Below are positions 12,448 to 60,825 of a stretch of 64,000 nt of DNA, in pieces. The DNA is from Candidatus Magasanikiibacteriota bacterium (GTDB taxonomy: Bacteria > Patescibacteriota > Patescibacteriia > Magasanikbacterales > UBA922). Position 1 is the stretch's first letter; each line of letters opens with the position of its first letter. The notes under the pieces are model-generated. The model saw nothing but the letters and a program-made list of their open reading frames with translations, was not told where the DNA came from and did not search any database. Location of the stretch: assembly GCA_049287025.1 (NCBI GenBank), contig JBAQFA010000009.1, forward strand, positions 24,802 through 88,801, read 5' to 3'. Position numbers and translations under genes: made by a program.

Positions 12448-12471
12448 TTTAACACTTTTTAAATCGTAAAC

Positions 12472-13588: not shown

Positions 13589-13795
13589 TCAAATCTCTAG
13601 GCAGTCTTGACTGCCTACGACATCGTTCTTTCAACCTGTCCCGTTCGGGACACCAAAGTCAGGGAAGTGAGTATCACTCCACATCGGAGCGTACCTTCCC
13701 TGGCGCTCCATCAAAAGAACATCTCTAGTTAGGTGTTTTTTTGTTTAACATTGATTTTACAGATTTTAAAAAAGATTTTATTTTATAAAAATTAT

Positions 13796-21780: not shown

Positions 21781-21806
21781 AAAAAGCGGGCTTAAACCCG
21801 CTTTTT
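21781..21806. terminator. Bidirectional intrinsic terminator (recA / ychF)
   Basis: aaaaagcgggcttaaacccgcttttt is a perfect GC stem flanked by an A-run and a T-run. Confidence 0.8.
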
Positions 21807-21836
21807 GTTATGTGATATGTGTCTCGTGTTATGTGT

Positions 21837-29123: not shown

Positions 29124-29170
29124 AGCAAAAATATATTAAAGTGGTGTGAAGCCACACCACGTGGTGGTAT

Positions 29171-30254: not shown

Positions 30255-31049
30255 TTATTTTTTCTTTTTGGCAAGTTGAGAGAGTGGTACGGCCGTATTC
30301 CAAGCTAGTTCATATAGCGCTTTTAGAATTTTTACCAAAGATGTACTTTCTATCATTACACCAATTTTGTGTGGTTTATGAGTGACGAAGACAATTTTTG
30401 ATTCAAAAATATTAATTTCACCAAAAAAGTCCTCAATTCCTGGTAGTTGATTAGGTTTAAGCCATTTAATATGAGTATAAGTCATTGATCCTTTATAATT
30501 CGTCATCCAAGTTCTAGCTGTAGGTGTATCCAAAGCAATAATACGTTCATGAATTTTACGTTTACTGCGTTCACGATTATAGCCTTCACCCCAAGTTTTG
30601 AATTCCGGCCAACTCCAGCCTTCAAAATCGGCAATAGAAAGAATTTCGGTTTTTGAATCTAAGCTCTCCCAATAAATATTTTTTAAACCCTGGGTACCTT
30701 CTTGATATTTGATAACTGGCTTTTCGGCAAACTTATAAATCGAAAATAATTTTGGTAAAACTTTTTCTACATTTAATAATTTATCTTCCCATTGCTTTTT
30801 TTTGTTTTTAATATGTTGAACCAGACGCCCTGGATTTTCCGAAGTATAAATCATTTTCGATCCTTTGCCAGTCGCGCGATCTACCAAACCATACCAACCT
30901 AACTTTTCCAAAGCATAATAACCAAGCGTTCGGTTGATACCAGCTTTTTTGGTTATCTCGGCTACAGTAGCAGGACCAAGTTCGAGCAAGGCTAAATATA
31001 CTTTGCCTTCGGTTTCATCTAAACCTAATTGACTGATTAAATCTTTCAT
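30255..31049 (-). CDS. TrmB-family wHTH transcriptional regulator (paralog 3)
   Basis: LGLDETEGKVYLALLELGPATVAEITKKAGINRTLGYYALEKLGWYGLV. It is clearly homologous along its full length to the ORFs 31929..32732 and 48975..49763. Confidence 0.85.
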   Translation of the reverse strand: MKDLISQLGLDETEGKVYLALLELGPATVAEITKKAGINRTLGYYALEKLGWYGLVDRATGKGSKMIYTSENPGRLVQHIKNKKKQWEDKLLNVEKVLPKLFSIYKFAEKPVIKYQEGTQGLKNIYWESLDSKTEILSIADFEGWSWPEFKTWGEGYNRERSKRKIHERIIALDTPTARTWMTNYKGSMTYTHIKWLKPNQLPGIEDFFGEINIFESKIVFVTHKPHKIGVMIESTSLVKILKALYELAWNTAVPLSQLAKKKK

Positions 31050-31818: not shown

Positions 31819-31850
31819 CCGTGCGCCCGACACATTCAAAACGGGCAAAT

Positions 31851-31928: not shown

Positions 31929-32732
31929 TTATTTTTTCTTTTTACTAGTTTTAGCAAGCGGTGTAGCTGTAATCCACGCCAGTTCAAAAATCGCTTTTAA
32001 AATATTAGATAAAGCCGTGCTTTCTATAATTATGCCAATAGGGATTGGTTTCTTGAATAAAGCCATCATTACTTTATTATCATAAATATTAATTTCACCA
32101 CCTAAATCTTTGATAGTTGGTACTTGTTCGGGTTTTATCCAGCGATAATTAATATATTTTTTTGATCCTTGATAATGTTTCATCCAATCTCTTCCTTCGG
32201 GTGTATCTAAAACCAAAACGCGTTCAGAAATTTTTCTTTTACTACGTTCGCGGGTATATTCTTTGCCCCATTTAAAAAGATTAAACTCTGGTGTATACCA
32301 AGCTTGCAAATCCAAGACTGATAAAATTTCTGATTTGGCTTCTAAAGTTTCCCAATAAATATTTTTGGCACCCTCAACACCTTCTTGAAATCTAACGCTG
32401 GGTTTTTCGGCCACGGTATAGAGTAAATAAAAATCTGGCAATTGTGATTCTAATTCTTTTTCTTTTCTTTCCCAAGTATTAATTTTTGATTTTACAAAAT
32501 GTTTTAAATTTTTGGGATCTTTGGCTACAAATTGAATGCGTTTCTTTTGTCCAGAAGAACGATTGACTAGGCCAAACCAACCAAGTTTTTCTAGGGCATG
32601 ATAACAAAGGGTGTGACCAATGCCAGCTTTGCGGGCAATGGCGCTGGCGCCAGAAGGTCCAAGTTGTAAAAGGGCAATATAGACTTTGGCTTCTGTTTCT
32701 TCAAAGCCAATGCTTTTAAGAATTTCTAACAT
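31929..32732 (-). CDS. TrmB-family wHTH transcriptional regulator (paralog 4)
   Basis: IGFEETEAKVYIALLQLGPSGASAIARKAGIGHTLCYHALEKLGWFGLV. The C-terminus LKAIFELAWITATPL...KKKK parallels that of paralog 3. Confidence 0.85.
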   Translation of the reverse strand: MLEILKSIGFEETEAKVYIALLQLGPSGASAIARKAGIGHTLCYHALEKLGWFGLVNRSSGQKKRIQFVAKDPKNLKHFVKSKINTWERKEKELESQLPDFYLLYTVAEKPSVRFQEGVEGAKNIYWETLEAKSEILSVLDLQAWYTPEFNLFKWGKEYTRERSKRKISERVLVLDTPEGRDWMKHYQGSKKYINYRWIKPEQVPTIKDLGGEINIYDNKVMMALFKKPIPIGIIIESTALSNILKAIFELAWITATPLAKTSKKKK

Positions 32733-32875: not shown

Positions 32876-32904
32876 TTGACATACTCCATAATCTAATGCA
32901 TAAT
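32876..32904 (+). promoter_or_regulatory. Promoter of GC-rich cassette 4
   Basis: TTGACA (32876-32881), a 17-nt spacer, then CATAAT (32899-32904). The architecture matches the minus-strand promoter at 48721-48749. Confidence 0.55.
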
Positions 32905-32906
32905 TA

Positions 32907-32946
32907 CTTGTTCTGACGATCGAGGATTGGCCTTGAGAGTTGGACG
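32907..32946 (+). promoter_or_regulatory. Conserved cassette 5' leader (CTTGTTCTGACGATCGAGGAT..CCTTGAGAGTTGGACG)
   Basis: It matches 48718-48679 (minus strand) at 37 of 40 positions and is closely similar to 48294-48258 (minus strand). It contains the hairpin TCGAGG-N5-CCT(C/T)GA. The C-to-T change keeps a G:U pair, and the loops differ. Confidence 0.7.
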
Positions 32947-32963
32947 CTAACTGGGAGGGCATC

Positions 32964-33311
32964 ATGGCCGAAGAGCACGAGGTACGGTGTGATAACTGCG
33001 CCCACCACCACGTAGGAAGCGGGGGTTGTTTCGGCAAAGTAGAGAGCAGGTTCCCCATGTACGATTTTCATAGAGGAGTAAAATACTGCATGTGGGGGGG
33101 GACCCCCAGCCGAATTGTGACCTTTTCTAGATTGAAGGGGTGCCCGCTGGGTGTGGAGTTTGTGCCACTCCGCTGGTGTGGTACCTGTGGCAACTTGGTC
33201 CAAACGGACCAAGGGTGTGCTCACCGGTTGGAGGGTTGCGAGGACCCCAGCTACAGGTGCTGGAAGATTCACCCCGACCTCAAGGAGGGTATGAGACAAC
33301 AGTACCTCTAG
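32964..33311 (+). CDS. GC-rich Cys/His-rich protein, unknown function (cassette 4, ORF a)
   Basis: GGGAGGG lies 4 nt upstream of the ATG at 32964. 115 aa with CDNCAHHH, CGTCG and other Cys pairs that suggest metal binding. I recognise no family. Confidence 0.65.
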   Translation: MAEEHEVRCDNCAHHHVGSGGCFGKVESRFPMYDFHRGVKYCMWGGTPSRIVTFSRLKGCPLGVEFVPLRWCGTCGNLVQTDQGCAHRLEGCEDPSYRCWKIHPDLKEGMRQQYL

Positions 33312-33335
33312 ACTACCCACCTATGGGTTAAACAG

Positions 33336-33447
33336 GCGTAGGCCGACGCGTGAGCTCGGCATTCCATTTTTGTCCAAAATATTATTTTTTGCATAAAGAT
33401 GGAGGCGCTCTTTAAAAACAAACAATCCGCACTGGTGGTGTTGGTTG
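33336..33447 (+). repeat. Inter-cassette junction repeat, copy A (~112 nt)
   Basis: The 3' motif is followed by the AT hairpin ccatttttgtcc...gcataaagatgg (33364-33402). CGCTCTTTAAAAACAAACAA and CACTGGTGGTGTTGGTTG follow that. It aligns along its full length with 34176-34285. Confidence 0.8.
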
Positions 33448-33480
33448 AAGAGATATAGTTCTGACTTAACGGAGGCTAGA

Positions 33481-34149
33481 ATGGGATACGACCCAAACCA
33501 AATGGCCCAAAGGTATTTGAGGGTCGACTGGGCCGACGTGAAGGGCTATGCCGCTTACGCGGTAGAGTCCACGTTCGGGGACCAAGTACCACCACCCATA
33601 AAAAGGAGACTCGAGGTATTGGACGGTATAAGGGACAAGGAAGGTCCCGAAGCCGCCTGTCTCGAGGCAGCAAGGATCGAATGTGAATGCCAAGTCGTTC
33701 AGGAGAAAAGAACTGAACGACGGCAGTGGAGAACGGGAGACGACCCATACAAATATGGGTCTTCGTTCTCTTCGAAGTTTGTCATCATAGATTATAATGG
33801 TGAAAAAAGATTCTACATCGCTCATAATTGGCATATGCAGGCCGTTTTCGTTTTCGCCAAAATTCTGGTGGATAGAAATAAAAAAGTCGATTTTCACGTT
33901 CTGGGTGGGGGGTGGTTCCGTGCTAATCATCCCCTAACTGTTGGCGGTTTTAGCGGTGATTTTAGCTCGTTCAAAATCTCTGACTTGAGTGAGGCGTTGG
34001 GTGGGCTTGAATTCACCGACAAAGATCCCGGTGATTGGCGCACGAATTCCATGCGTGCCACCCATATTGATTGGGCTTTTATCGAAAAAGCCCGTGACTC
34101 CTCTGAGAAATACAGGGAGGTATGGAAACGGATCTTTGAGGAGGAATAA
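33481..34149 (+). CDS. Unknown-function protein (cassette 4, ORF b)
   Basis: AGTTCTGAC (33457-33465) precedes GGAGG, which lies 5 nt upstream of the ATG at 33481. The TTG at 33445 from the ORF track is rejected. 222 aa. I recognise no family. Confidence 0.6.
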   Translation: MGYDPNQMAQRYLRVDWADVKGYAAYAVESTFGDQVPPPIKRRLEVLDGIRDKEGPEAACLEAARIECECQVVQEKRTERRQWRTGDDPYKYGSSFSSKFVIIDYNGEKRFYIAHNWHMQAVFVFAKILVDRNKKVDFHVLGGGWFRANHPLTVGGFSGDFSSFKISDLSEALGGLEFTDKDPGDWRTNSMRATHIDWAFIEKARDSSEKYREVWKRIFEEE

Positions 34150-34175
34150 TAGACGTAATCTGATTTCGTCAATCA

Positions 34176-34285
34176 GCGTAGGCCGGCGCGTTAGCTCGGC
34201 ATTCCATCTTTGTATAAAAATAATTTTATATAAAGATGGTTGTCGCTCTTTAAAAACAAACAACTAACACTGGTGGTGTTGGTTG
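34176..34285 (+). repeat. Inter-cassette junction repeat, copy B (~110 nt)
   Basis: See copy A. The hairpin ccatctttgtat...atataaagatgg lies at 34204-34239. Confidence 0.8.
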
Positions 34286-34339
34286 GTGATATATAAAAAG
34301 GACTGGTGGCGGACACAACCCTTGGAGAAGGAGTTGAAA

Positions 34340-34759
34340 ATGAGTACTGTCAAGATACTCATCATCGACGACGGTGATGAGAAAGTCGATCGACTGAAAG
34401 GTTATGATCGACTTGGCCACCTCCATGGTGTGGAGGTGGTACGCCGATGGAATTTTAATTCGGCTCTTAAGGAAGGGCCGTACGCGTTTAATGATTTGGA
34501 GCAAACAAAGTTTGACGTGATTATTTTGGACTTTACACTGCCAATGGACAGATTCGGTCATGAGATCTTGGATAAAATTAGACACAGTCCCAGGTTTATT
34601 ATTAACGAAAGAACGGTAGTAATTGGCATTTCCACAGAGTGGAAACGTCTATTACAATATGATTTCGGTTTGAATCTTGCGATCTACAAGGAGGAAACGA
34701 TGGCTGACGAACTGGAAACAGCCATCAAGTCCTTCGTCGCCACTGGCAAAGTCAAATAA
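34340..34759 (+). CDS. Stand-alone CheY-like receiver (REC) domain protein (cassette 4, ORF c)
   Basis: AAGGAG lies 6 nt upstream of the ATG at 34340. KILIIDDG, the putative phospho-acceptor in DVIILDFTLP, and VVIGIST fit a receiver fold. There is no output domain, and no kinase lies in the window. Confidence 0.65.
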   Translation: MSTVKILIIDDGDEKVDRLKGYDRLGHLHGVEVVRRWNFNSALKEGPYAFNDLEQTKFDVIILDFTLPMDRFGHEILDKIRHSPRFIINERTVVIGISTEWKRLLQYDFGLNLAIYKEETMADELETAIKSFVATGKVK

Positions 34760-34798
34760 TTTGGGGAGGGAAAGACGAAGCTTGGGATTTGTCACCCA

Positions 34799-34824
34799 AC
34801 GTAGGCCGGCGCGTGAGCTCGGCA
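34799..34824 (+). repeat. Cassette 3' motif copy (ACGTAGGCCGGCGCGTGAGCTCGGCA), end of the array
   Basis: It matches the 26-mer consensus at 25 of 26 positions. It is preceded by AGACGAAGCTTGGGATTTGTCACCCA, which resembles the sequence preceding the copies at 31793 and 34176. Confidence 0.8.
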
Positions 34825-34959
34825 ATCTCCTTTTTCGCGAAAGAAAGAGCAAAAAAGATCCAGTAAAACTGGGCTTTTTTGTTTGTGGATAAAATAGTTG
34901 ACAATGTGTCTAATATCGTGTATAGTATATAATATATTATAAACTATATACTATAAACT

Positions 34960-35460
34960 ATGAAAACAGACACTACTGACAAAATTTTAGAGTATATTAA
35001 AGAAAAAGGACAGGTTAAACCAAAAGATATAATTAATTATATTGGTTTTGGTGCGCCTGCTGTTTTTAGACAATTAAAAAAACTCATAAGTGAAGGTAAG
35101 ATAGAAAAAAGTGGCACTCCACCAATGGTTTATTATCATTTTCCGATTGACATAAAAGATATAGAGGTTAACGAAAAGAAAATTTTTGATATAAAAATAA
35201 ATTTAAAAGAATTTGGTATTCATCTTTCAGATAGAGAATCAGCCAAAAGATCGTTATTGTTTATTAAGATGAGGTATAAGAAAATTATTGATAATGTCAA
35301 TAAAATTGAAATTAATTTTGAGGATATAAAAGTACTAGGACCTGGCTGGGCTGACGAATTTATTTCTAATTTATCAAAAGAGTATCCAGGAAAGATAGTT
35401 TTGTTGCCTAGTAATAATGCTAGCATAAAAGCTTCGTTACAATTTATTAATATAAAATAA
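34960..35460 (+). CDS. wHTH + STAS-like (DUF4325-like) protein
   Basis: The N-terminal winged helix is ILEYIKEKGQVKPKDIINYIGFGAPAVFRQLKKLISEGKIEK. The C-terminal ~80 aa resemble DUF4325. The assignment is tentative. Confidence 0.5.
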   Translation: MKTDTTDKILEYIKEKGQVKPKDIINYIGFGAPAVFRQLKKLISEGKIEKSGTPPMVYYHFPIDIKDIEVNEKKIFDIKINLKEFGIHLSDRESAKRSLLFIKMRYKKIIDNVNKIEINFEDIKVLGPGWADEFISNLSKEYPGKIVLLPSNNASIKASLQFINIK

Positions 35461-35484
35461 TTTAACATAATTAATTGTTATTTT

Positions 35485-35799
35485 ATGAGCATTGTTTTTC
35501 TTGATGATGATGTGGAAAATTTTATTTATAGTCTAGAAAATAAAACAAAAGCTAAGGTTTTGCGAACGTTGGATTTGCTAGAAGAGTTTGGTTATAATCT
35601 GGGCATGCCACATACAAAAAAGATTAAAAATAATCTTTTTGAATTGAGAGTATTGGGTAGAAATCAGGTGCGATTATTTTATACATTTTTAAAACCAAAT
35701 ATAATTGTTTTGTGTGGCTTTAGAAAGAAGACTCAGAAAATTCCTAGTCATGAATTGGAGAAAGCCCTGCATAAATTAAAGTTGCTTGACAAGATATAA
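35485..35799 (+). CDS. HigB/Gp49-like (RelE/ParE superfamily) toxin
   Basis: 104 aa. The pattern ...LEEFGYNLGMPHTKKIKNNLFELRV...VRLFYTF...IIVLCGFRKKTQKIP is typical of phage Gp49/HigB-type toxins. The antitoxin gene follows immediately. Confidence 0.7.
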   Translation: MSIVFLDDDVENFIYSLENKTKAKVLRTLDLLEEFGYNLGMPHTKKIKNNLFELRVLGRNQVRLFYTFLKPNIIVLCGFRKKTQKIPSHELEKALHKLKLLDKI

Positions 35800-35822
35800 C
35801 ATATATGTTATATTATAAATGT

Positions 35823-36095
35823 ATGAAAAATTACAATAAAATTAAATCAGAAATATTAAAAGACCCTAAGTTCAAAAAAGTCTATGACGATCTTGAGCCA
35901 GAATTTGAATTGGCTCGGCAAATTATTAAAAAGCGTTTGGAATTAGGTTGGTCTCAGTCAGAATTGGCTAGAAAAATGGGTACCAAGCAGTCGGCTATTG
36001 CCAGGTTGGAGTCTGGCGGATATAATCCAAGTATGGCTTTTTTGCAAAAAACAGTTAAGGCATTAAAGGCCGATTTACAGATAATTATTAGTTAA
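35823..36095 (+). CDS. XRE-family HTH antitoxin (HigA-like)
   Basis: The HTH is LGWSQSELARKMGTKQSAIARLESG. I chose the start ATG at 35823 (MKNYNK...). Confidence 0.7.
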   Translation: MKNYNKIKSEILKDPKFKKVYDDLEPEFELARQIIKKRLELGWSQSELARKMGTKQSAIARLESGGYNPSMAFLQKTVKALKADLQIIIS

Positions 36096-47476: not shown

Positions 47477-47676
47477 TTTTTGGTTTGATGACTGTTTACG
47501 TACTAATTACGAAACTTACGAATCTACGAAACTACCATTGTTAAATTGCCACATTGTTAAATTGTTAATGATACACACAGAAGAAAGTCTGTTAATGTAA
47601 ATTTTACGGAAATTAAACAAAAAATCCCTTCCTAAATGGTTGGGATTTTTTTGTCTCGTTTGTCGACAAGTCGAGA

Positions 47677-47702
47677 TGCCGAGCTCACGCGCCGGCCTAC
47701 GC
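47677..47702 (-). repeat. Cassette 3' motif copy (minus strand)
   Basis: The reverse complement GCGTAGGCCGGCGCGTGAGCTCGGCA is an exact match to the copy at 31793. On the minus strand it is followed by the terminator hairpin atccc...gggat and a T-run (about 47615-47652). Confidence 0.85.
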
Positions 47703-47784
47703 CTATTTAATCCATAGATGGAGTGCCACTTTTGAATGTGTGTGGCGCACAGTGAAGAGGTGTGGAACAAGCCGGCCATGTTTA

Positions 47785-48228
47785 TCAGATTTTGAATTCC
47801 TGATAAATCCTGGCCAGCACCTTTGCAGCCGTATGAACTCGTTCCAGGATGTTCGTGAGTGCGTCGGAGAATTCGTGCCACTCCCAGACAGTCTCTTCCC
47901 CGTCACTTTTCAGGTTGTAGCTACCCATCATGGCGGCAAACACTTGGTAGGCGTTAACGCTTCGGCCTGTTTTTTCCCCACGCAGTATACTGCCGTGTAT
48001 GTGTTGCGCGTAGTTTTCAAGCCACTCAACCAAATCTTCGTTCCCCTCTATTTTCTGTAGAAGCTGGTCTGCGATTTGATCAACGCTTTCCTTACAACAC
48101 TCTTCATCTGCGTCAAGTCGTAAGTACAGGCAAACGATGGCGATCAGATTGGGTGGAAGGTCATAGCATCCCTCAGGATAAGTCCTGAGCATAGGCTCGC
48201 CTTCTCCCCAGCTAGAAAGGTAGAGCAT
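47785..48228 (-). CDS. Unknown-function acidic helical protein (cassette 5, ORF b)
   Basis: AGGAGG lies 6 nt upstream of the ATG at 48228. 147 aa. I recognise no family. Confidence 0.6.
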   Translation of the reverse strand: MLYLSSWGEGEPMLRTYPEGCYDLPPNLIAIVCLYLRLDADEECCKESVDQIADQLLQKIEGNEDLVEWLENYAQHIHGSILRGEKTGRSVNAYQVFAAMMGSYNLKSDGEETVWEWHEFSDALTNILERVHTAAKVLARIYQEFKI

Positions 48229-48257
48229 CACTCACCTCCTTGTTTACAAAGAACGTT

Positions 48258-48294
48258 GTCCAACTTTCGAGGTACATCCTCGATTGTCAGAACT
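48258..48294 (-). promoter_or_regulatory. Conserved cassette 5' leader copy (AGTTCTGACAATCGAGGATGTACCTCGAAAGTTGGACA)
   Basis: This is the third copy of the leader, at an internal (intercistronic) position. The hairpin is TCGAGG-atgta-CCTCGA. Confidence 0.7.
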
Positions 48295-48385
48295 TCCTCC
48301 ATCTTTATACAAAAAATATTTTGGACAAAGATGGAAGGCCCGGCGCTTTGTTGACGCGCGGCCGGGCGAAGCGTGGCGGAGTGTG
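48295..48385 (-). repeat. Inter-cassette junction, short version
   Basis: On the minus strand, the GC hairpin gcccggc...gccgggc occupies the place of the 3' motif. The AT hairpin ccatctttgtccaaaatattttttgtataaagatgg (48334-48299) follows and is nearly identical to 33364-33402. It then runs straight into AGTTCTGAC. Confidence 0.7.
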
Positions 48386-48652
48386 TTACTCCTTGGGTGT
48401 GGAGAGGTGGAGAAAGTGGCGGATTTTTTGCCAGAAGATTTTGTTGGCTTCTATTCCGGCTTCCTTTTTCGCTCGAGCCTCCCTGATGCCCTTGTTCCTT
48501 TCGAGGCCACACTGGGGGCAGTAGGACATGTGAGGTAAGAGTTCATTTCCACACAGGCATTGTGGAAGAGCAACTCTCTTTACACCACAATATTGACAGA
48601 ACTCTGAGTATCCCACGTGACTACACATCGGGCACAGCCTACTCTCAAGCAT
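48386..48652 (-). CDS. Double zinc-ribbon protein (cassette 5, ORF a)
   Basis: GGAGG lies 5 nt upstream of the ATG at 48652, and the TTG at 48685 from the ORF track would fall inside the conserved leader. CPMCSH...CQYCG and CLCG...CPQCG form two Cys4 ribbons. The C-terminal tail is basic. Confidence 0.65.
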   Translation of the reverse strand: MLESRLCPMCSHVGYSEFCQYCGVKRVALPQCLCGNELLPHMSYCPQCGLERNKGIREARAKKEAGIEANKIFWQKIRHFLHLSTPKE

Positions 48653-48678
48653 TTCTTCCTCCAGAGTGTAAGGAATTT

Positions 48679-48718
48679 CGTCCAACTTTCGAGGCCCATC
48701 CTCGATCGTCAGAACAAG
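48679..48718 (-). promoter_or_regulatory. Conserved cassette 5' leader copy
   Basis: The reverse complement is CTTGTTCTGACGATCGAGGATGGGCCTCGAAAGTTGGACG. Confidence 0.7.
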
Positions 48719-48720
48719 GA

Positions 48721-48749
48721 ATTGTAGATTATTTATGAGTAATTGTCAA
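48721..48749 (-). promoter_or_regulatory. Promoter of GC-rich cassette 5
   Basis: The reverse complement reads TTGACA (48749-48744), a 17-nt spacer, then TACAAT (48726-48721). TAAGTAGTTC at 48753-48762 also occurs at 31193-31202. Confidence 0.55.
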
Positions 48750-48974
48750 GATTAAGTAGTTCAAAAATGTATATAAAATAGGCTAAAATAAGCTAAATAA
48801 TTATTAACACATATAATTTTGTCGGGATGATTTGACATATATTGTTATATATGTTATATTAGTTATGGTTTAAAACATTATTTTGTTTGCTAAAGTGGTT
48901 AATTGTAGGAAAGATTCACCCTTCGGGTATCTTCGACCTCTCCGCCAGTCGGCGGATCGGAATGAACTAAAAAA

Positions 48975-49763
48975 ATGGAAAAAAATAATTTAGAAAAATT
49001 AATAGATTTGGGTCTACAAGAAAATGAAGCCAAAATATATTTGGCTTTGTTGGAATTGGGAAAAGGCAATGTGACCGAAATTAGTCGGCGCGCAGGATTG
49101 AACCGGACGACGGGTTATGATATTTTGGAACGTCTTGGTTTACATGGTATGGTGAACCGCGCCAGAGTGGGTAGTAAAAAAATTATTTATGTGGCCGAAC
49201 CGCCATCACATTTGCGTCAGTACTTGGAAGACAAAAAACGCGCCATGGAAAGACGGATGGAAGAATTAAATGATTTGTTGCCAGATTTGCAATCACTTTA
49301 TAAAACTGATATTAAACCAGTTATAAAATTTGCCGAAGGGAAAAGTGAAATGCAAAAATTGTATTTGAATGTTTTGGATGCGAAGAGTGAAGTTTATTCA
49401 ATTCTTAATTTAAAAGGTTATGCCGAAGTTTTTGATGAACTGGGTGCTTATCAATCCAAAGAACGACATAAAAAAGGCATAAAAGAAAAAGTTTTGGCTA
49501 TAAAAAATGATACCGCTCTGTGGTGGTATAATAAAACTTATAAAAATAAAACTGCCAAGGATAAAAAGTTAACCGAATATCGCTGGCTAGAAGATGCGGA
49601 AAAGTATTCTACCGCCGGAGAAGTAAATATTTTTGATGATAAAGTAATTGGTGTATTATCCAAACCAAGTGAAAATGTGGCATTTGAAATTCAATCACAG
49701 ACATTTGCGGATTTTTTGAAATTAGTTTTTGAAATGGCGTGGAAGAATAGTGAACAAAAATAA
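48975..49763 (+). CDS. TrmB-family wHTH transcriptional regulator (paralog 5)
   Basis: LGLQENEAKIYLALLELGKGNVTEISRRAGLNRTTGYDILERLGLHGMV. It is homologous to paralogs 3 and 4 and divergent from cassette 5. Confidence 0.85.
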   Translation: MEKNNLEKLIDLGLQENEAKIYLALLELGKGNVTEISRRAGLNRTTGYDILERLGLHGMVNRARVGSKKIIYVAEPPSHLRQYLEDKKRAMERRMEELNDLLPDLQSLYKTDIKPVIKFAEGKSEMQKLYLNVLDAKSEVYSILNLKGYAEVFDELGAYQSKERHKKGIKEKVLAIKNDTALWWYNKTYKNKTAKDKKLTEYRWLEDAEKYSTAGEVNIFDDKVIGVLSKPSENVAFEIQSQTFADFLKLVFEMAWKNSEQK

Positions 49764-55317: not shown

Positions 55318-55578
55318 AAAAGTTGTAAAGTTAAAAGTTATAAAGTTTCTAAAGTAAAAAAATTACCTCTAAACATAGAGGTAATTTTTTATTGACATTG
55401 TCGACCTGTAGATACTATACTTGAACTATATAATAATGTACTAAATAACTTGGAGTTGGTGACTAAATGGAATACTTCAGTTAAAGATTTTTGCAAACAA
55501 GAGATCAGGACTAACACACTTGCTTTTAGATAAAAAGTGGCTTAAAATAGGGTTATATAATGTTTAATCACTTAAAAT

Positions 55579-55761
55579 ATGAACTCACAAGACACTTATA
55601 GCCAAAAAGACAACCACACAGATGTTGCCGAAACACTACCAAATACTAACAACACACCAAGTGATAACCAACCAACAAACAGCCCAAACCAGCAAGTGGT
55701 GGCAAATGACGGAACTACTGTAACTTTAGGCCAAAATGGCCATTCTCATAAGACCAAATAA
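55579..55761 (+). CDS. Small low-complexity (N/T/Q/P-rich) ORF, doubtful
   Basis: 60 aa. I recognise no family and see no RBS. Confidence 0.25.
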   Translation: MNSQDTYSQKDNHTDVAETLPNTNNTPSDNQPTNSPNQQVVANDGTTVTLGQNGHSHKTK

Positions 55762-55813
55762 CTATAGGGCGATTTTCATTGAACTGTAGTTAATATAATA
55801 ATACTATAGTTCT

Positions 55814-56224
55814 ATGATTGATAATCAAACAAAAGAGAAATTCATCGAATTAAGAGCACAAGGAAAAAGTTATAACACAATCTCTAAAGAGATTGGTGTA
55901 AGCAAACCCACACTTATTCAGTGGAGTAGAGAGTTTGTGGACGAAATTTCCAATCTTAAAGCAATAGAATTTGAAGATTTACAAGAAAAGTATTATATAC
56001 ACAAAAGAAAAAGAATAGAAATTTTTGGCACACAACTGGAAGCCATAAAGCAGGAACTTTCTTCAAGAGATCTAAAAACAATTTCAACTGAAAGGCTTTT
56101 GGATTTATTGGCTAAATTTACGACGGTATTGAAAGCAGAAGAAACAACTATAAACTTTACTACAAAAGTCAGTCCCGTTGATGATTATTTAGATCTATCA
56201 GTTGTAAAAAATTGGATTGGATAA
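55814..56224 (+). CDS. HTH-domain protein (resolvase/terminase-small-subunit-like HTH)
   Basis: FIELRAQGKSYNTISKEIGVSKPTLIQWSREF is a typical three-helix HTH. A coiled coil follows. Confidence 0.55.
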   Translation: MIDNQTKEKFIELRAQGKSYNTISKEIGVSKPTLIQWSREFVDEISNLKAIEFEDLQEKYYIHKRKRIEIFGTQLEAIKQELSSRDLKTISTERLLDLLAKFTTVLKAEETTINFTTKVSPVDDYLDLSVVKNWIG

Positions 56225-56341
56225 AATATTACCAAAACTTTACTATTTTTTGACCGAGATATTCAAAGAAAGTATATATTGCTTTTATCTCGTTTTTATG
56301 ATAATATAGCGGTACTAAACATTCAGTAGACTTATAATTTT

Positions 56342-57085
56342 ATGAGTAATAAATATAACAAAAATTTCATTGGAAAGGTTGCTTTTCGTTTAGATTTCTC
56401 CGAAAATGTTGCAATTGGTTCATTGAAAGATCTTCATGAAGAAATAAATGATGTTTTTTCAATAAAAGAAGAAAAAGAGAGTGTGACAGGGTTTGTTCAA
56501 TTAGATTTTAAGAGCGGTGAAATGAGAAATGAAACTGAAAAAATGGCTTCTTGGTTATTTAGCAATACAGAAAAAAATAAAAGAATGGAAATAAATTCGA
56601 GATTTTTGTATTTAGAATATGATAAATACAATGAAAAAACTGAACTATTTGACGATATAAAAAATGTAGTTCAAAAATTCATATCAAAATATAATATAAA
56701 AACTTTTAATCGTATTGGTTTAAGATTTATAAACGAAATAAAGTTACAAGAAAGTGAGCAACTGGATTGGACTAAATATATTGACAAAAACCTAATTGCT
56801 AATCTTATTTTTGTTAAAGATCAAAATAAAAAATTAGCTCGTGCAATGAGTGCCTTAGTTTTCAAAGAAGAAAAAGGTGATATAAATTTTAATTTTGGTA
56901 TTTGGAATAGTGAGTATCCAAACGAGGTTAACAGAAAGGAATTTGTATTAGACTATGATTGTTTTTCAAATTTAGGAATTTCTGATGATGAAGTTTTAGA
57001 ACGCACAGAGCAGTTTCATTCATATATTGAAAAACTATTTGAAGCAAGTATAACGGAAGAATTTAGAGGATTGTTAAATAAATAA
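56342..57085 (+). CDS. Hypothetical protein (possibly TIGR04255-like)
   Basis: 247 aa. The N-terminal ...KVAFRLDF and overall size recall the TIGR04255 family. This is not verifiable here. Confidence 0.45.
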   Translation: MSNKYNKNFIGKVAFRLDFSENVAIGSLKDLHEEINDVFSIKEEKESVTGFVQLDFKSGEMRNETEKMASWLFSNTEKNKRMEINSRFLYLEYDKYNEKTELFDDIKNVVQKFISKYNIKTFNRIGLRFINEIKLQESEQLDWTKYIDKNLIANLIFVKDQNKKLARAMSALVFKEEKGDINFNFGIWNSEYPNEVNRKEFVLDYDCFSNLGISDDEVLERTEQFHSYIEKLFEASITEEFRGLLNK

Positions 57086-57088
57086 AAT

Positions 57089-57289
57089 ATGAATAATAAT
57101 TACTCGCAACAGTCTGCCCAGACAGCAGGTTCAAATGACTCTGGTTATTTTGCAAAACAAAATAATTCTACAGTAACGAGTGATTATATAACTAAAACCA
57201 AGGAAACAGCTGAATTTGTAGTTGTTAATGGTTCAGGTTATTCACAAAGACAGGCAAGAATTGTGAAAAGTAAATATGTTAGAAAGTAA
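57089..57289 (+). CDS. Small hypothetical protein
   Basis: 66 aa, tightly packed between neighbours and overlapping the next ORF by 14 nt. Confidence 0.35.
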   Translation: MNNNYSQQSAQTAGSNDSGYFAKQNNSTVTSDYITKTKETAEFVVVNGSGYSQRQARIVKSKYVRK

Positions 57290-57854
57290 TATTAAATCTT
57301 TTTATAAAAAACACAGCAAGGAGCGATTTTGCCAAGGTGATATTTTGAGAGATGTAAAAGTTTCAATTGACATTCCAATCGAATGGCAACAATCAGAGGG
57401 TAATACCACAGATTATGATTTACCGTATTGTGTTATTATGACACAAGATTGTGACTTGGATAGAGATTTCGAAAGTAAAAAAGGTGAAAAACTCACAAAC
57501 AACGACAAACATTTACCGACAATTTTAGTTTGTCCAGCATATCGTGATCTTCCTTTTTATGAGGGTAAACATCTTGTAGGCTGGAAAATGCAGGAATACA
57601 AAGGCAAGGCATTAGAAAAAATACAAAAAAACGATGAAATAAACAGGTGCCACTTTCTAAAAGGTGACAGTACCTTACAAATACCAAATCTTGTAATTGA
57701 CTTCAAACATTTCTACACATTGCCAACAAGTATACTTTATGAACAATACAACGATATTTATTTAGCAACTATAAATGAATTATTCAGAGAGAGGCTATCA
57801 CAACGTTTCGCTAATTATTTATCGAGATTTGGTTTGCCAGAATTAAAATCATAG
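57276..57854 (+). CDS. Hypothetical protein with a CVIMTQDCDLDRD motif
   Basis: 192 aa. I recognise no family with confidence. Confidence 0.45.
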   Translation: MLESNIKSFYKKHSKERFCQGDILRDVKVSIDIPIEWQQSEGNTTDYDLPYCVIMTQDCDLDRDFESKKGEKLTNNDKHLPTILVCPAYRDLPFYEGKHLVGWKMQEYKGKALEKIQKNDEINRCHFLKGDSTLQIPNLVIDFKHFYTLPTSILYEQYNDIYLATINELFRERLSQRFANYLSRFGLPELKS

Positions 57855-57910
57855 ATAAAGATTTTATAAAATACGATAATATATAACCAGCTGATAAAGC
57901 TGGTTTATTA

Positions 57911-57939
57911 TTGCTAAATAAACATCAGTATGGTAAAAT
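57911..57939 (+). promoter_or_regulatory. Promoter with extended -10 driving the structured RNA
   Basis: TTGCTA (57911-57916), a 17-nt spacer, then TGgTAAAAT (-10 at 57934-57939). Confidence 0.5.
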
Positions 57940-57945
57940 CATAAT

Positions 57946-58097
57946 GCTAACCCACAACTTAATATACACAAGAATGAATGAGGTTCTCCTCATCTTTTGT
58001 CCGTTTGCGACCAGAGATGGGGTAGCAACCTTCCACAAACGGGCATTCTTGTGTTCGCAAAGTGGGTTAGCAGGTATGCTATCCCTTTTTTGTTTTT
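57946..58097 (+). ncRNA. Riboswitch-like structured RNA / sRNA (unknown class) with overlapping terminator
   Basis: P1 pairs gctaacccac (57946-57955) with gtgggttagc (58062-71). P2 pairs cacaagaatg (57967-76) with cattcttgtg (58044-53). P3 is the hairpin atgagg-ttct-cctcat (57978-93). P4 pairs ccgtttg (58001-07) with caaacgg (58036-42). The terminator gggttagc-aggtat-gctatccc plus a T-run (58064-58096) shares the 3' strand of P1. Confidence 0.55.
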
Positions 58098-58228
58098 AAT
58101 TTAATAAAAGATTACACAGTCTTTTACAATTTTACACAAAAATTGGACAAAATTGGACAAAAATCATTCAAGTTCATACACAAATTACGGGTTTCACATT
58201 AACCCGACTAATTATTAACATAGATTAT

Positions 58229-58744
58229 ATGAAAAAATGTCAGTTTTGTGCTGAAGAAGTGCAAGATGAAGCCATAGTATGTAAACACTGTGGCAAAGAA
58301 TTAAATAAGCAGGCTGTAAAAAAGAAGGAGTATAATTGGACATTTCGCAAAATTAGTTGTGCGGTTATATTAGTCCCAGTAGTCTTGATTTTTGTAATTA
58401 CCATGGCGGGCGGATGCAATAATTCTAAATCAACCCCAACAGATAGTGCATTATCAAACGTGGGCGTTGGACAGGAAGGTTTCTTACGTACGAGTGATAC
58501 TGGTGCGGATGTTTTGTTAGCTACTTCAGAAAAATCATTTGATGATTTAATTAATGCATCGGTTGCAAAAGATACAATTGGTATGGCACAAATTGTCCTT
58601 AATGGTAATGCTTTTTACATCCCTTATAACACAAAAGTATTAGTGATCGAGTCTTCTTTTGCTAAAAGAAAAGTACGTATTTTGGAAGGTGAGAAAGTAG
58701 GCGAAACTGGTTGGATACCCTATGAGTTTGTTGTTGCAAAATAA
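58229..58744 (+). CDS. Zinc-ribbon membrane protein
   Basis: It has an N-terminal CQFCAEEV...CKHCG ribbon, one TM segment and an extracytoplasmic beta-rich (SH3-like?) C-terminus. Confidence 0.55.
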   Translation: MKKCQFCAEEVQDEAIVCKHCGKELNKQAVKKKEYNWTFRKISCAVILVPVVLIFVITMAGGCNNSKSTPTDSALSNVGVGQEGFLRTSDTGADVLLATSEKSFDDLINASVAKDTIGMAQIVLNGNAFYIPYNTKVLVIESSFAKRKVRILEGEKVGETGWIPYEFVVAK

Positions 58745-58804
58745 TGGAAAACAAACAAAAAACCTGCTATATTAATAGTAGGTTTTTTTATTAAAATAAA
58801 TATT

Positions 58805-60442
58805 ATGACAACCACACAAGATTTGTACAAAATGATCGGAACTGCACAACAGCAGGAAGAAGATAAGGATGACGTTTCAAAATATCGATACGTTATTTAT
58901 GCTCGAAAATCTACAGATGATAAAGAAAAACAAATCAGATCATTAGGTGATCAAATTAAAGAATGTAAGGATTATGCTGAAAGAAATGGACTTAGATGTT
59001 TACCGAAACCAATAACGGAGTCAGAGTCTGCCAAGGAACCAGACATAAGGCCAGAGTTTAAGAAATTAATTGATGACATTAAAAAAGCTAAATATGATGG
59101 TATTTTGGCTTGGCATCCAGACCGTTTGGCCAGAAATATGAAGGATGCTGGAGAGATAATAGATCTGTTGGATAAAAAGATAGTGAAAGACCTAAAATTC
59201 GTAACATTTACGTTTGAGAACAATACAATGGGTAAAATGTTGTTAGGGATGGCTTTCGTGCTGTCTAAGCAGTATTCTGACGCTTTAAGTGATAATGTAA
59301 AACGAGGAACAAGTAGAAGTATTGAAGAAGGTAGATGGTTGAACAAAGCTAAACATGGTTATTATAAAGATCGTAATCAAATACTGCATCCAGATGGTAG
59401 ATTTTTTAATCTGATTGAGAATATTTTTAGGATGAGAATAGATAATAAAAGTTTGGATGATATAGCTGATTATTTGAATGAAAATAGATATTGTTGTGCC
59501 CCACCTTCTAAGAATGAAGCTGACCGTAGCCCATTTCAAATGACCAAACAGATCGTCTCTAAAATTGTGAGAGACCCATTTTACACTGGCATTCTTAAGT
59601 ATGGAGAAAACAAGGTTGATTTAACTGAAATTTATGACTTTACTCCTGCTGTAAGTGTGGATGATTTTCTGAAAATAAACAACTTTTCTGATATTGAAAA
59701 AGCTCTAAAATTAACTGGAAAAATTTATAAAGACAACGCAATCAAGGCAGATTTGATGAGAGGAATGATAATTTGTGGTGAATGTGATGGAAGTATGACA
59801 TCTGGAATTACTCCTAAAAAAACAAAAAATGGTAAAACTAATTATTTTTATTACAGATGTGATAACCCTGTTTGTAAAAATAAAGGTAAGTCTATAAGGG
59901 CAAAAGTAATTATTGACTTTGCCTGTCAATATTTGGAAAAAAACAAATTTACCTCTCATTCTATATATGGGCATTATATCCAAGAAATGAAAAAAGTTGT
60001 AATGGAAAAAGAGAGGTCTCTCATACAAAAAATTCGTTCATTGACGGAGACCAGAGTACACAAAAAAAATCAATTTGAAAAGACAAAAAAATCTCTTATA
60101 CAAGAGACTGACGAAGACATCAAGGGTTTTTTTAAGGAAGATTTGAAACAATTAGAAAAGGACATCAATAATTTAGAAACCGAAATAGATGAATTGAAAG
60201 ATGAGAAAGAAAGAAATAATAGCGTCACGCTGACTTACTCAGAATACCTTGAACTGTTCAATAATTTAGCTGAGCGTATTAAAAAAATAGGCGTTATGGA
60301 AGACCTAAATTTTATAATGAAAAAAATCTTCTTGAACTTTACTATAAAAGAGGGAAAAGTGGCTCTATATACACTAAACTCCCCATTCGGGGAGTTCGTG
60401 AAAGACCGTATTGTCTTGACATGTCGGGGTGAAAGGACTTGA
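58805..60442 (+). CDS. Large serine recombinase (resolvase/invertase N-domain + recombinase domain + zinc ribbon + coiled coil)
   Basis: The catalytic-Ser region is YVIYARKSTDDKEKQIRSLGDQ. WHPDRLARN is present. The Cys4 cluster is CGECDG...YYRCDNPVC. The C-terminal coiled coil is long. Confidence 0.85.
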   Translation: MTTTQDLYKMIGTAQQQEEDKDDVSKYRYVIYARKSTDDKEKQIRSLGDQIKECKDYAERNGLRCLPKPITESESAKEPDIRPEFKKLIDDIKKAKYDGILAWHPDRLARNMKDAGEIIDLLDKKIVKDLKFVTFTFENNTMGKMLLGMAFVLSKQYSDALSDNVKRGTSRSIEEGRWLNKAKHGYYKDRNQILHPDGRFFNLIENIFRMRIDNKSLDDIADYLNENRYCCAPPSKNEADRSPFQMTKQIVSKIVRDPFYTGILKYGENKVDLTEIYDFTPAVSVDDFLKINNFSDIEKALKLTGKIYKDNAIKADLMRGMIICGECDGSMTSGITPKKTKNGKTNYFYYRCDNPVCKNKGKSIRAKVIIDFACQYLEKNKFTSHSIYGHYIQEMKKVVMEKERSLIQKIRSLTETRVHKKNQFEKTKKSLIQETDEDIKGFFKEDLKQLEKDINNLETEIDELKDEKERNNSVTLTYSEYLELFNNLAERIKKIGVMEDLNFIMKKIFLNFTIKEGKVALYTLNSPFGEFVKDRIVLTCRGERT

Positions 60443-60497
60443 ACCTTCGGCCTCCTGGTCCCAAACCAGGCGCTCTAGCCAACTGAGCTACACCCCG
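60424..60497 (-). tRNA. tRNA-Pro (TGG)
   Basis: The reverse complement reads cggggtg-ta-gctcagttggctagagc-g-cctgg-ttTGGga-ccagg-...gaaggttcaagtccttt-caccccg-a. Confidence 0.9.
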
Positions 60498-60541
60498 TTA
60501 AAGTTATAAAGTTGAAAGTTTTAAAGTTCAAAAAAATAACT

Positions 60542-60616
60542 TGGTGCCGAGGGCCAGGATCGAACTGGCGACACGTGGATTTTCAGTCCACTGCTCTACC
60601 ACTGAGCTACCTCGGC
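60542..60616 (-). tRNA. tRNA-Phe (GAA), CCA encoded
   Basis: The reverse complement reads gccgagg-ta-gctcagtggtagagc-a-gtgga-ctGAAaa-tccac-gtgtc-gccagttcgatcctggc-cctcggc-acca. Confidence 0.9.
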
Positions 60617-60624
60617 TTGTTTTG

Positions 60625-60698
60625 TGGACCTGAGGAGATTCGAACTCCTGACCCCCTGCTTGCAAAGCAGGTGCTCTAGCCAGCTGAGCTACAGGCCC
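60625..60698 (-). tRNA. tRNA-Ala (TGC)
   Basis: The reverse complement reads gggcctg-ta-gctcagctggctagagc-a-cctgc-ttTGCaa-gcagg-...caggagttcgaatctcct-caggtcc-a, with G3:U70. Confidence 0.9.
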
Positions 60699-60825
60699 TT
60701 TTTTAAAAACCCAAAACAAAAGTGGGGATATTATAGCAACTAGTGATATTTTTGTCAATCTTATTCTCATTTATCAGTTTTTATGGTAAAATATAAACAA
60801 TTATTAATAAATTATAAAAATAATT

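Follow-up and report, generated by a model that had tools for sequence, protein, structure and literature searches.

What kind of genetic system places unrelated genes behind the same leader and in front of the same 3' motif, at two sites 14 kb apart and in opposite orientations? The question is raised by a GC-rich operon (48749 to 47615, minus strand) in a stretch of 64,000 nucleotides, called the window below, from a Candidatus Magasanikiibacteriota bacterium (GenBank assembly GCA_049287025.1, contig JBAQFA010000009.1, positions 24,802 to 88,801). This operon, the T5 unit, lies divergent from the gene of a TrmB-family regulator (T5) and shares short cis elements with the T3 unit, which adjoins a second TrmB gene (T3). 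A sequence-only reading had proposed that the two units belong to a dispersed, modular family. The explanation that we favour, with slightly more confidence than doubt, is a family of divergent TrmB regulator/cargo operons in which the elements around each open reading frame (ORF) serve as mRNA stabilisers or processing sites and also as recombination anchors. The evidence is the recurrence of the elements with unrelated cargo, the exchange of cargo at element boundaries between relatives and the pairing-preserving substitutions in the hairpins.

The window is an AT-rich chromosome segment (~33% GC); dnaA/dnaN, recA, polA and ftsK are all encoded in it, so the locus is chromosomal. Origin from a Candidatus Magasanikiibacteriota metagenome-assembled genome (MAG) fits the NCBI names attached to the cargo genes C7 and C4. 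Stretches of other genomes used for comparison carry L numbers; L001 and L007 belong to UBA11710, a Magasanikbacteria MAG and sister genome. Element statistics are based on 5-11 independent sequences per element from ~4 genomes.

Organization of the T5 unit

The T5 unit is one predicted transcription unit, 48749->47615(-), of the order P-L-C6-G-A-L-K-C7-H1-Y-M-E-T (P, promoter; T, terminator). Its parts, in the direction of transcription, are the following.

48721-48749, minus strand: cargo promoter, TTGACA-N17-TACAAT
48680-48714, minus strand: leader L1, a 35-nt two-stem hairpin beginning ~0-2 nt from the predicted transcription start
48386-48652, minus strand: cargo ORF C6, 88 aa, four CxxC pairs (double zinc ribbon), GC content at third codon positions (GC3) 0.56
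48338-48367, minus strand: GC hairpin G, GCCCGGC-N16-GCCGGGC, serving the C6 cassette as its 3' hairpin
48299-48334, minus strand: AU hairpin A, CCATCTTTGTCCAAAATATTTTTTGTATAAAGATGG, 36 nt, the intercistronic junction
48258-48292, minus strand: leader L2, second hairpin copy within the operon, 3 mismatches in 35
48244-48254, minus strand: K box GTTCTTTGTAA just upstream of the Shine-Dalgarno (SD) sequence of C7, with variants GTTCTTTACAA and GCTCTTTAAAAA
47785-48228, minus strand: cargo ORF C7, 147 aa, an ORFan, GC3 0.55
47724-47750, minus strand: H1 hairpin, GTGCGCCACACACATTCAAAAGTGGCA
47703-47723, minus strand: Y hairpin, CTCCATCTATGGATTAAATAG, preceding the 26-mer and homologous to 33317-33335 (46 nt at 91%)
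47677-47702, minus strand: M, the 26-mer GCGTAGGCCGGCGCGTGAGCTCGGCA, a 7-bp hairpin, exact copy
47615-47676, minus strand: E hairpin TCTCG...CGAGA, then terminator stem-loop and T-run

Every part that the sequence-only reading had named was found again: the promoter at 48749-48721(-); the leader (48718-48679(-)), which agrees with 32907-32946 at 37 of 40 positions, with no such match expected by chance; the zinc-ribbon ORF at 48652-48386, with its four CxxC pairs and weak Pfam matches (Zn_Ribbon_1/DZR); the AT hairpin, placed at 48334-48299 and nearly identical to 33364-33402 and 34204-34239; the second leader copy at 48292-48258(-); the 147-aa ORF at 48228-47785; and the exact 26-mer at 47702-47677 with a terminator after it.

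The leader similarity extends over 53 nt at 87%. Its 35-nt core has three mismatches to the T3-unit copy, no matches being expected in shuffles, and three leader copies are present in the window. The 26-mer occurs five times in the 64 kb (none expected in shuffles), and all five copies lie inside cargo units. C6 is preceded by the SD sequence GGAGG, 6 nt upstream of the ATG. Hairpin G stands where the 26-mer hairpin would be, and a partly conserved remnant of it is found in L007. Three L001/L007 cassettes, L008 and the T2 unit also have the K box ahead of the SD sequence; the shared vocabulary of the units includes a K/X box at this place, GTTCTTTACAA or GCTCTTTAAAAA. A further H1 copy (31821-31847) has the stem CCCG/CGGG instead of CCAC/GTGG, two compensatory pairs that can be read directly, and in L007 H1 is placed after the first ORF. 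The terminator stem-loop and T-run (47653-47615), whose long loop was missed by a simple terminator scan, is conserved in UBA11710; E and terminator together are kept in L007 and L002.

Related units in the window

Five GC-rich ORF units are present (12.5-13.7, 29.2-30.2, 31.2-31.9, 32.9-34.9 and 48.7-47.6 kb, the last on the minus strand). Each adjoins an AT-rich TrmB paralog (T0, T1, T2, T3 and T5; four divergent, T0 convergent) and opens at a near-consensus promoter. In every unit the GC-rich block spans the predicted transcription start to the terminator, untranslated regions (UTRs) included. The GC content of ORFs in the window is bimodal, 0.26-0.41 for host genes and 0.43-0.60 for cargo-type ORFs; GC3 is 0.43-0.68 in this GC-rich set against 0.24-0.30 in host genes; over all cargo compared it is 0.41-0.74 (mostly 0.5-0.7) against 0.24-0.33. 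The T3 unit is composed as follows.

32876-34885, plus strand: T3 unit ('cassette 4'), 14 kb from the T5 unit on the opposite strand
32876-32904, plus strand: promoter
32911-32945, plus strand: leader L
32964-33311, plus strand: cargo ORF C3
33317-33361, plus strand: Y and M hairpins
33364-33402, plus strand: AU hairpin A
33406-33457, plus strand: element X
33481-34149, plus strand: cargo ORF C4
34152-34175, plus strand: S hairpin
34176-34201, plus strand: M
34204-34239, plus strand: second AU hairpin A
34244-34295, plus strand: second element X
34340-34759, plus strand: cargo ORF C5
34774-34798, plus strand: S hairpin
34799-34824, plus strand: M
34825-34885, plus strand: F hairpin and terminator

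The order is thus P-L-C3-Y-M-A-X-C4-S-M-A-X-C5-S-M-F-T in the T3 unit and P-(other 5' hairpin)-K-C2-S-M-H1-T in the T2 unit. Order and choice of the elements differ from unit to unit, a mosaic arrangement. Between the T5 and T3 units the -35 hexamer is common and a contiguous match runs from the -10 region through the leader; the intergenic DNA upstream of the -10 region is not similar, and neither are the cargo proteins. The likeness of the two loci therefore goes beyond promoter hexamers (leader 37/40, 26-mer 26/26, AU hairpin, H1/Y), and they are not whole-segment duplicates, the coding regions being dissimilar.

No strong (11-of-12) promoter was found between the ORFs of the T5 or T3 units. 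In the T3 unit each of the two AU hairpins is overlapped by a weak 9-of-12 promoter match (33356-33385 and 34196-34224) and may hold a weak internal promoter; as a function of the AU hairpin in general this was rejected, since the T5 junction has no match and the spacing is wrong (13 nt). The AU hairpin has no T-run.

Three smaller observations concern these units. Element X ends (33455-33470) in a half leader, GTTCTGAC, then TTAAC, without the remaining hairpin, which suggests past recombination inside L. In 3' UTRs the S hairpin is preceded, at a distance of 4-6 nt, by a conserved SD-like GGAGG (34148, 34765 and 31735, and the L001, L002 and L007 equivalents), which no start codon follows. 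The region 12470-14560 holds the unit beside T0: its 323-aa ORF (12617-13588; 60% GC, GC3 0.66), which has no Pfam, PHROG, PADLOC or phage match, stands behind a strong promoter and a structured leader of 130 nt, and the T0 gene (13796-14560) is convergent to it.

Replacement of cargo between relatives

The sequence-only reading had suggested looking between the PBP1A and LTD genes of related genomes. The T5 locus of UBA11710 (L007) is orthologous, with a T5 protein 97% identical and the same PBP1A and LTD flanks. Homology with the window begins in T5 at 49094, takes in the promoter and stops with the final base of L (48679); it sets in again at M (47702) and extends over E and the terminator into the flank. 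Between these breakpoints only A (twice), L2 and H1 match. The L007 cargo consists of three ORFs (~198, ~80 and 225 aa) unrelated to the 88-aa and 147-aa ORFs of the window. L ends at 48679 and M begins at 47702, so that both breakpoints lie in elements. As judged from this alignment, cargo has been exchanged within a conserved cis frame. Of the checks that the sequence-only reading had suggested, this comparison gave its interpretation the strongest support. Target-site duplications were absent from the edges of the T5 unit. The broader proposal of a dispersed, modular family with the same wiring and different payloads also stands: the cis elements recur, the cargo is unrelated, and in L007 it has been swapped.

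The T3-like unit of L001 has the order P-L-C3'-Y-M-F-T. The T3 unit of the window looks like this unit with two [A-X-ORF-S-M] repeats inserted between M and F. In L003/L004 a single T3-like module carries the same leader with a different Cys-rich ORF and is followed directly by RmuC. L001 has the T2 and T3 modules in the reverse order to that of the window; the T1 module is present in the window only and a further module, Ta, in L001 only. The tRNA-proximal array locus is hyperplastic.

Orthologous cargo has diverged far more than its regulators: identity is 48% for the C3 pair against 79% for the T3 pair, and 33% for the C2 pair against 96% for the T2 pair. The elements on either side remain almost unchanged. 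By these comparisons the cis elements are far more conserved than the ORFs that they flank. They are also decoupled from the phylogeny of the regulators, because T3 and T5 (37% identical) have the leader in common and T2, which is nearer to T3 (49%), has none. This is the outcome of the comparison of TrmB similarity with cis-element similarity that the sequence-only reading had called for.

Pattern scans of 185,579 GTDB species representatives with the 26-mer gave a single matching contig, from UBA11710; the pattern required GCTCGGCA, so that GCCCGGCA variants escape it. A broader pattern gave three JGI metagenome contigs. Neither the 26-mer nor the leader matched in IMG/VR, and blastn/tblastn against phage and plasmid collections gave no match. 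The 34 AU-hairpin pattern matches in the phage/plasmid search were rejected as chance, as they do not form hairpins. Rfam gave only tRNAs at the gathering score, and the units had no credible match at E<=1. In independent public assemblies of this population (L005, L055-L057) the breaks coincide with repeated elements (within the AU hairpin, directly behind C6, and around T5), and cargo units are likely to be under-represented or mis-joined in MAGs.

Some neighbouring genes also vary in place. At the site of the T0 unit, after the H+-PPase, L002 has a different TrmB gene and a divergent, HAD-like, GC-richer ORF ending in the 26-mer. Between the T3 unit and RmuC the window carries (34960-36095) a winged helix-turn-helix (wHTH)/DUF4325 (STAS-like) gene and a Gp49 (HigB-like)/HTH_3 toxin-antitoxin pair, which are absent from that place in L004; a similar Gp49/HTH pair adjoins the T5 cargo in L008.

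Elements as probable RNA structures

All non-redundant copies (11 of M, 6 of L, 5 of A and 7 of S) are in the sense orientation relative to the ORFs. The alignments were folded with RNAalifold. L forms 12 pairs, and its two stem substitutions both preserve pairing (G-C to G.U; U.G to U-A). M forms seven pairs; pair 14-24 is G.U in six, G-C in three and A-U in two of the 11 sequences. S forms four pairs, the fourth being G-C four times, U-A twice and G.U once, and shows two double-compensatory changes. No broken pair was found in the L, S or M alignments. A forms 17 pairs with an invariant G.U, one C-G to U-A double change and wobble changes, and its 15 core pairs hold in all five sequences.

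A sense transcript is indicated, because the conserved G.U pairs would be C.A on the opposite strand. Compared with shuffles, the junction and 3' UTR folds have z-scores of -3.8 to -5.8 (-3.9 to -5.8 for the junctions), and where a unit has no L, another stable hairpin takes its place at the 5' end. Since the elements always lie in sense and nearly all stem substitutions keep pairing, we infer that they are RNA structures. The data are supportive rather than conclusive.

Proposed mechanism

The AT-rich, syntenic TrmBL2-like gene and the back-to-back promoters would form a fixed expression platform. Behind every ORF stand one or two GC hairpins (S or Y plus M; G; or H1). Where another ORF follows, the 17-bp AU-rich hairpin A comes next, and a fresh 5' element (L, K or X) with a strong SD sequence leads into that ORF. 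Hairpin E or F and an intrinsic terminator close the unit. L at the 5' end would block 5'-end-dependent decay, and M, G and H1 after the ORFs would block 3' exonucleases. A would be a processing site of the RNase III type, at which the polycistron is cleaved into messages that each have their own protection. As L2 follows A directly, the cleaved C7 message would again start with a protective hairpin.

Stabilisation by L, M, G and H1 and cleavage at A by RNase III are suggested by analogy. The AU hairpin has 17 conserved pairs, a flanking extension and a 1x1 internal loop; at about two helical turns with an internal mismatch, it has the shape of an RNase III intercistronic substrate. RNase III is encoded in the sister genome (rnc, L052 3643-4410). 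RNase III intercistronic sites are known from the early region of phage T7, and the ompA and ermC leaders are 5' stem-loop stabilisers. The likeness to these consists of an intercistronic hairpin with an internal mismatch, a 5' stem-loop few nt from +1 and 3' hairpins for each ORF; it is purely structural, without sequence similarity.

Each ORF with its elements can be regarded as a portable expression cassette, because it carries all that it needs for expression. The conserved elements of 25-50 nt are the sole homology between unrelated cassettes and hence the likely sites of insertion, deletion and replacement. Homologous recombination would act on them within a genome and between strains, with unequal exchange of the repeated M, A and terminator copies. 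It is the likely route of exchange, because the elements are the only shared homology and all observed breakpoints fall in them. The window itself encodes RecA. Unlike the ends of a classical mobile element, the elements behave as RNA structures and homology anchors.

Several points weigh against this model. In model bacteria, homologous recombination works inefficiently on anchors of 25-50 nt. Imperfect palindromes such as the AU hairpin and L are also of the kind that recombinases bind, and L ends in GTTGGAC, an integron-core-like heptamer. Support from covariation is modest, with few double-compensatory pairs in a small sample from ~4 genomes, and the A sequence 34194-34249 has U.U at its two outermost pairs. 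The model leaves the GC-richness of the cargo, and its persistence in orthologous T1 modules, unexplained. No donor pool for the cargo was found in species representatives, IMG/VR or phage/plasmid collections.

TrmB-family regulators and divergent promoters

The regulator side of the two loci comprises the following features.

48975-49763, plus strand: T5, TrmB-family (TrmBL2-like) regulator, PF01978 E=3e-16, AT-rich, divergent from the cargo unit
48832-48860, plus strand: promoter-like site for T5, TTGACA-17-TATATT with TG
48775-48796, minus strand: direct repeat TTAGCTTATT/TTAGCCTATT between both divergent promoters, candidate TrmB operator read from the sequence
31929-32732, minus strand: T3, TrmB paralog divergent from the related unit

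The PF01978 winged helix of T5 scored 59.4 bits (cutoff 25.6), and T0, T1 and T3 are likewise above the gathering score. The AlphaFold2 model of T5 (predicted local distance difference test score, pLDDT, 88.4) shows a wHTH, a long coiled helix and a PLD-like C-terminal domain. A Foldseek search with this model gave TrmBL2 as the top eight matches (5bpd/5box/5bpi/5bqt; E=1e-13 to 1e-15 over ~270 columns); FAM83 and SauUSI have PLD-like domains that likewise match the C-terminal domain. TrmBL2 has no sugar-binding C-terminal subdomain. T5 likewise lacks that of TrmB sensu stricto, Pfam showing the wHTH only, and at 262 aa it has the size of TrmBL2. T5 thus resembles TrmBL2 (PDB 5bpd) in length (~260 aa), PF01978 wHTH, long helix and PLD-like C-terminal domain, and differs in being bacterial (candidate phyla radiation, CPR), in its identity of only 17-19% and in being paired with a divergent, variable cargo operon.

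T5 is homologous to the TrmB proteins encoded at 30255-31049 and 31929-32732, as had been proposed, with 37% identity to each. Its orthologs across Patescibacteria (50-97% identity) mark it as a conserved and syntenic gene of this group. It does not always face divergent cargo: none is present at the more distant T5 orthologs of L046, L048 and L049, and the T5 paralog of L052 faces an AT-rich ATP-grasp gene. The regulator platform is old, and the cassette system is limited to this lineage.

The direct repeat TTAGCYTATT is kept upstream of the cargo promoter in L007, L008 and L052, and a reduced form, TAGCC[AT]A, is present in the T2 and T3 units. Each TrmB paralog probably represses the divergent promoter, with the TTAGCY repeats as candidate site. 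A perfect palindrome, CACCACGTGGTG, lies between T1 and the cargo promoter (29155-29166; L050 ~4650-4665; L058 ~3690-3701). It is conserved in all three T1 modules and is a likely T1 operator.

Cargo genes and their GC content

A search of 5.8e9 proteins with C7 returned only C7 itself, and no homolog of C4 was found among the same number. C7 has no Pfam, PHROG or PADLOC match. Its coding status rests on SD/ATG, length and a coding-like GC1>GC2 codon-position pattern, and its single-sequence AlphaFold2 model is of low confidence (pLDDT 46). C5 has a weak receiver-domain match in Pfam; PADLOC gave only weak receiver-domain matches for it as well, and a reading of the cargo as a defence system was rejected. 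PHROG gave no meaningful matches for the cargo. Diversity-generating retroelements, retrons and other reverse transcriptase systems were also rejected, as the window has no template/variable repeat pair and its ORFs include no reverse transcriptase. The strand-skew signature of a transcription-coupled mutator was sought and did not exceed that of host genes.

Three genomes conserve the T1 module (TrmB gene, small ORF and the gene of a secreted beta-rich protein, C1b), each in another neighbourhood (29516-30103 in the window, 5001-5603 in L050 and 4001-4597 in L058). The TrmB proteins of these modules are 69-78% identical and the cargo 53-57%. The GC3 of the T1 cargo is 0.55-0.62 beside a TrmB gene of 0.25-0.29. 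The GC contrast between co-inherited neighbouring genes is therefore persistent, since the T1 modules show it in three genomes. The shift might stem from selection on the mRNA, from GC-biased gene conversion at a recombination hot spot, or from an unseen pool that supplies replacements repeatedly.

A distant C1b homolog is encoded in L051 (2747-4660), from a 5.2-Mb genome of 34% GC. It is divergent from a different wHTH regulator, has a GC content of 0.39 and lies in a defence-island-like context (NACHT, AAA_15/21, GIY-YIG and DUF1016 nuclease genes). In L058 an IS200/IS605-type Y1 transposase gene with its own terminal hairpins, ATGTAACTCAAAAC..., is inserted (2900-3630) between the T1-like TrmB gene and the operator/promoter, and a bAvd/23S-IVP-type gene is located nearby (5352-5714).

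Alternative explanations

An integron-like site-specific system, in which the AU hairpin and/or the leader would be attC/attI-like and the recombinase encoded elsewhere, is improbable. The locus shares with integrons and with clusters of attC sites lacking integrases (CALINs) a promoterless ORF array behind one promoter (no 11-of-12 promoter between the ORFs), an imperfect palindrome after each ORF and ORFan cargo that varies between strains. L has the layout stem, 2x2 internal loop, stem, loop, and its GTTGGAC end fits GTTRRRY. A large serine recombinase 10 kb away (58805-60442) would also suit such a system. It is the only recombinase, however, and belongs to a separate AT-rich, tRNA-abutting island that is absent from L006-L008. 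No IntI or other tyrosine recombinase was found in the window; this and the other recombinase, reverse transcriptase and transposase negatives come from Pfam scans of the non-overlapping ORFs of at least 90 aa in the 64 kb. attC sites are 57-141 nt long, with the structure R''(RYYYAAC)-L''...L'-R'(GTTRRRY) and extrahelical bases. The elements described here are heterogeneous and 26-36 nt long; L, with only 35 nt, has no extrahelical bases and is placed at +1, so that the first element is at the 5' end of the transcript, and the substitutions fit RNA pairing. The GTTRRRY at the 3' end of L lacks a RYYYAAC partner in the correct order, the junctions do not have the R''/R' order, and GTTRRRY occurs at chance frequency in the T3 unit (3 observed, 2.5 expected). 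The mixed 3' hairpins (M, G, H1, S and Y) are also unlike a single att site.

We give equally little weight to ordinary horizontally acquired islets or prophage remnants whose motifs were brought from one donor element. The foreign codon usage of the cargo (GC3 shift against host genes), the ORFan status of the tested cargo genes C4 and C7, and neighbourhoods with toxin-antitoxin pairs, insertion sequences (IS) and the recombinase island would be expected of such islets. They do not lead one to expect a GC-rich block bounded by transcription start and terminator in every unit, or five units in 64 kb each beside a TrmB paralog, which is not a chance pattern. DNA, motifs and proteins have no phage or plasmid match, and the co-inheritance of the T1 module in three genomes with GC3 still at 0.55-0.62 speaks against recent, un-ameliorated transfer.

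That the leader is a DNA operator, its palindrome TCGAGG-N5-CCTCGA being bound by the adjacent TrmB protein and the common wiring reflecting shared regulation only, is quite improbable. Archaeal TrmB-like regulators bind a TATCAC-N5-GTGATA motif, which the 6-N5-6 geometry resembles; the position of about +10 to +27 suits a repressor, and an operator is compatible with an additional RNA role. The same leader, however, is found at T3 and T5, which are 37% identical and differ in recognition-helix sequence, while the T2, Ta and T1 units have no L. One copy is internal to the operon and is not preceded by a promoter. The substitutions (C->T giving G.U and G->A giving A-U) keep RNA pairing and lower DNA symmetry, and the 3' and junction elements and the replacement of cargo would be left unaccounted for. 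An operator is thus unlikely as the main role of L.

Selfish palindromes of the repetitive extragenic palindrome (REP) or bacterial interspersed mosaic element (BIME) type, spread by a Y1 (IS200 or REP-associated tyrosine transposase, RAYT) enzyme and not serving the operons, are very improbable. Known REPs are genome-wide, with hundreds of copies in both orientations and linkage to RAYTs; they form mosaic palindromes (BIMEs) in E. coli and have a role in mRNA stability. The mosaic of short hairpin motifs at 3' ends and between operon genes is similar, and a Y1_Tnp gene lies within the T1-type module of L058. That gene, however, is an ordinary AT-rich IS with different terminal hairpins, and a Y1 transposase was not found in the window. 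The copies are very few per genome, with few matching contigs in the pattern scans, and they are confined to cargo units (26-mer, 5/5 in 64 kb) and all in sense. Simple segmental (inverted) duplication of the T3 unit, to which the common -10 region, leader, junction and 3' motif might point, is refuted, as the sequence-only reading had held, by unrelated coding regions, TrmB genes only 37% identical, dissimilar DNA upstream of the -10 region and a T5 locus that is syntenic and old.

Relation to known systems

The closest described phenomenon is the shuffling of ORFans mediated by PeSLs (promoter-early stem-loops) in T4-like phages. In these cassettes regulatory stem-loop motifs flank small ORFans in hyperplastic regions, the endpoints of insertions, deletions and replacements between close relatives fall within the motifs, and each ORF is a self-sufficient expression module whose motif combines a strong sigma-70 promoter with a terminator (Arbiol et al. 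2010, PMC2839356; Comeau et al. 2014, PMC4122927). Circular recombination products (mini-circles) are a further trait of PeSL cassettes. The present locus likewise has stem-loop motifs flanking ORFans in a hyperplastic region and replacement or indel endpoints in the motifs (the T5 breakpoints and the T3-unit expansion). It differs in residing on a cellular CPR chromosome instead of a phage genome, in repeating, inside a single operon, 5' leaders, 3' hairpins and AU hairpins in place of promoter-terminator composites, in being tied to a divergent TrmB-family regulator and in its strongly GC-shifted cargo. It is also partly integron-like and is a member of neither class.

Conserved wHTH (WYL) regulators of the BrxR/CapW type head variable defence islands. 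The coupling of a conserved regulator to divergent, strain-variable cargo is the same here, whereas the regulator is TrmB, not WYL, and the cargo has no match to known defence families. As far as we found, a TrmB-linked cassette arrangement has not been described before in CPR/Magasanikbacteria; full-text literature searches gave no paper tying TrmB regulators or gene cassettes to these organisms.

A stronger form of the favoured model is possible but doubtful: a dedicated cassette-diversification platform in which the regulators guard the promoters, fast-evolving ORFans are captured, shuffled and exchanged by way of the 5', 3' and junction elements, and an active process tied to the transcription unit has kept the genes GC-rich through long evolution. 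For GC3 ~0.6 in a genome at 0.25 the candidate processes are GC-biased gene conversion at a recombination hot spot, RNA-mediated copying and a targeted mutator. If true, the platform would be a new system of gene innovation and exchange, parallel to integrons and phage PeSLs and mechanistically distinct from them.

CPR/Patescibacteria genomes are tiny and their gene acquisition is poorly understood; the locus provides a concrete route via interchangeable ORFan cassettes, near-identical strains differing exactly at the cargo behind fixed regulator/promoter platforms. It also provides candidate RNA stability and processing elements in organisms with almost no known RNA biology. The elements are a handle for cataloguing strain-specific accessory genes in metagenomes and explain assembly breaks. 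The GC3 of 0.25 against 0.6 in co-inherited neighbours could reveal biased gene conversion or another local force.

Other features of the window

The AT-rich island with the large serine recombinase (58805-60442) covers 55500-60700 (26-36% GC) and also encodes an HTH_23 protein, small ORFs and a Zn-ribbon protein. Three tRNA genes (60424-60698) adjoin it. As L006-L008 have no such island after the Na/H exchanger, it probably represents an integrated element. The window also has short repeats of the type TGTGATATGTG / TTTTTGTTATCTG between genes, at 6246-6280, 8688-8722 and 21802-21837, and also at 695-721 and 7060-7086; similar strings occur in the intergenic DNA of L050 and L058.

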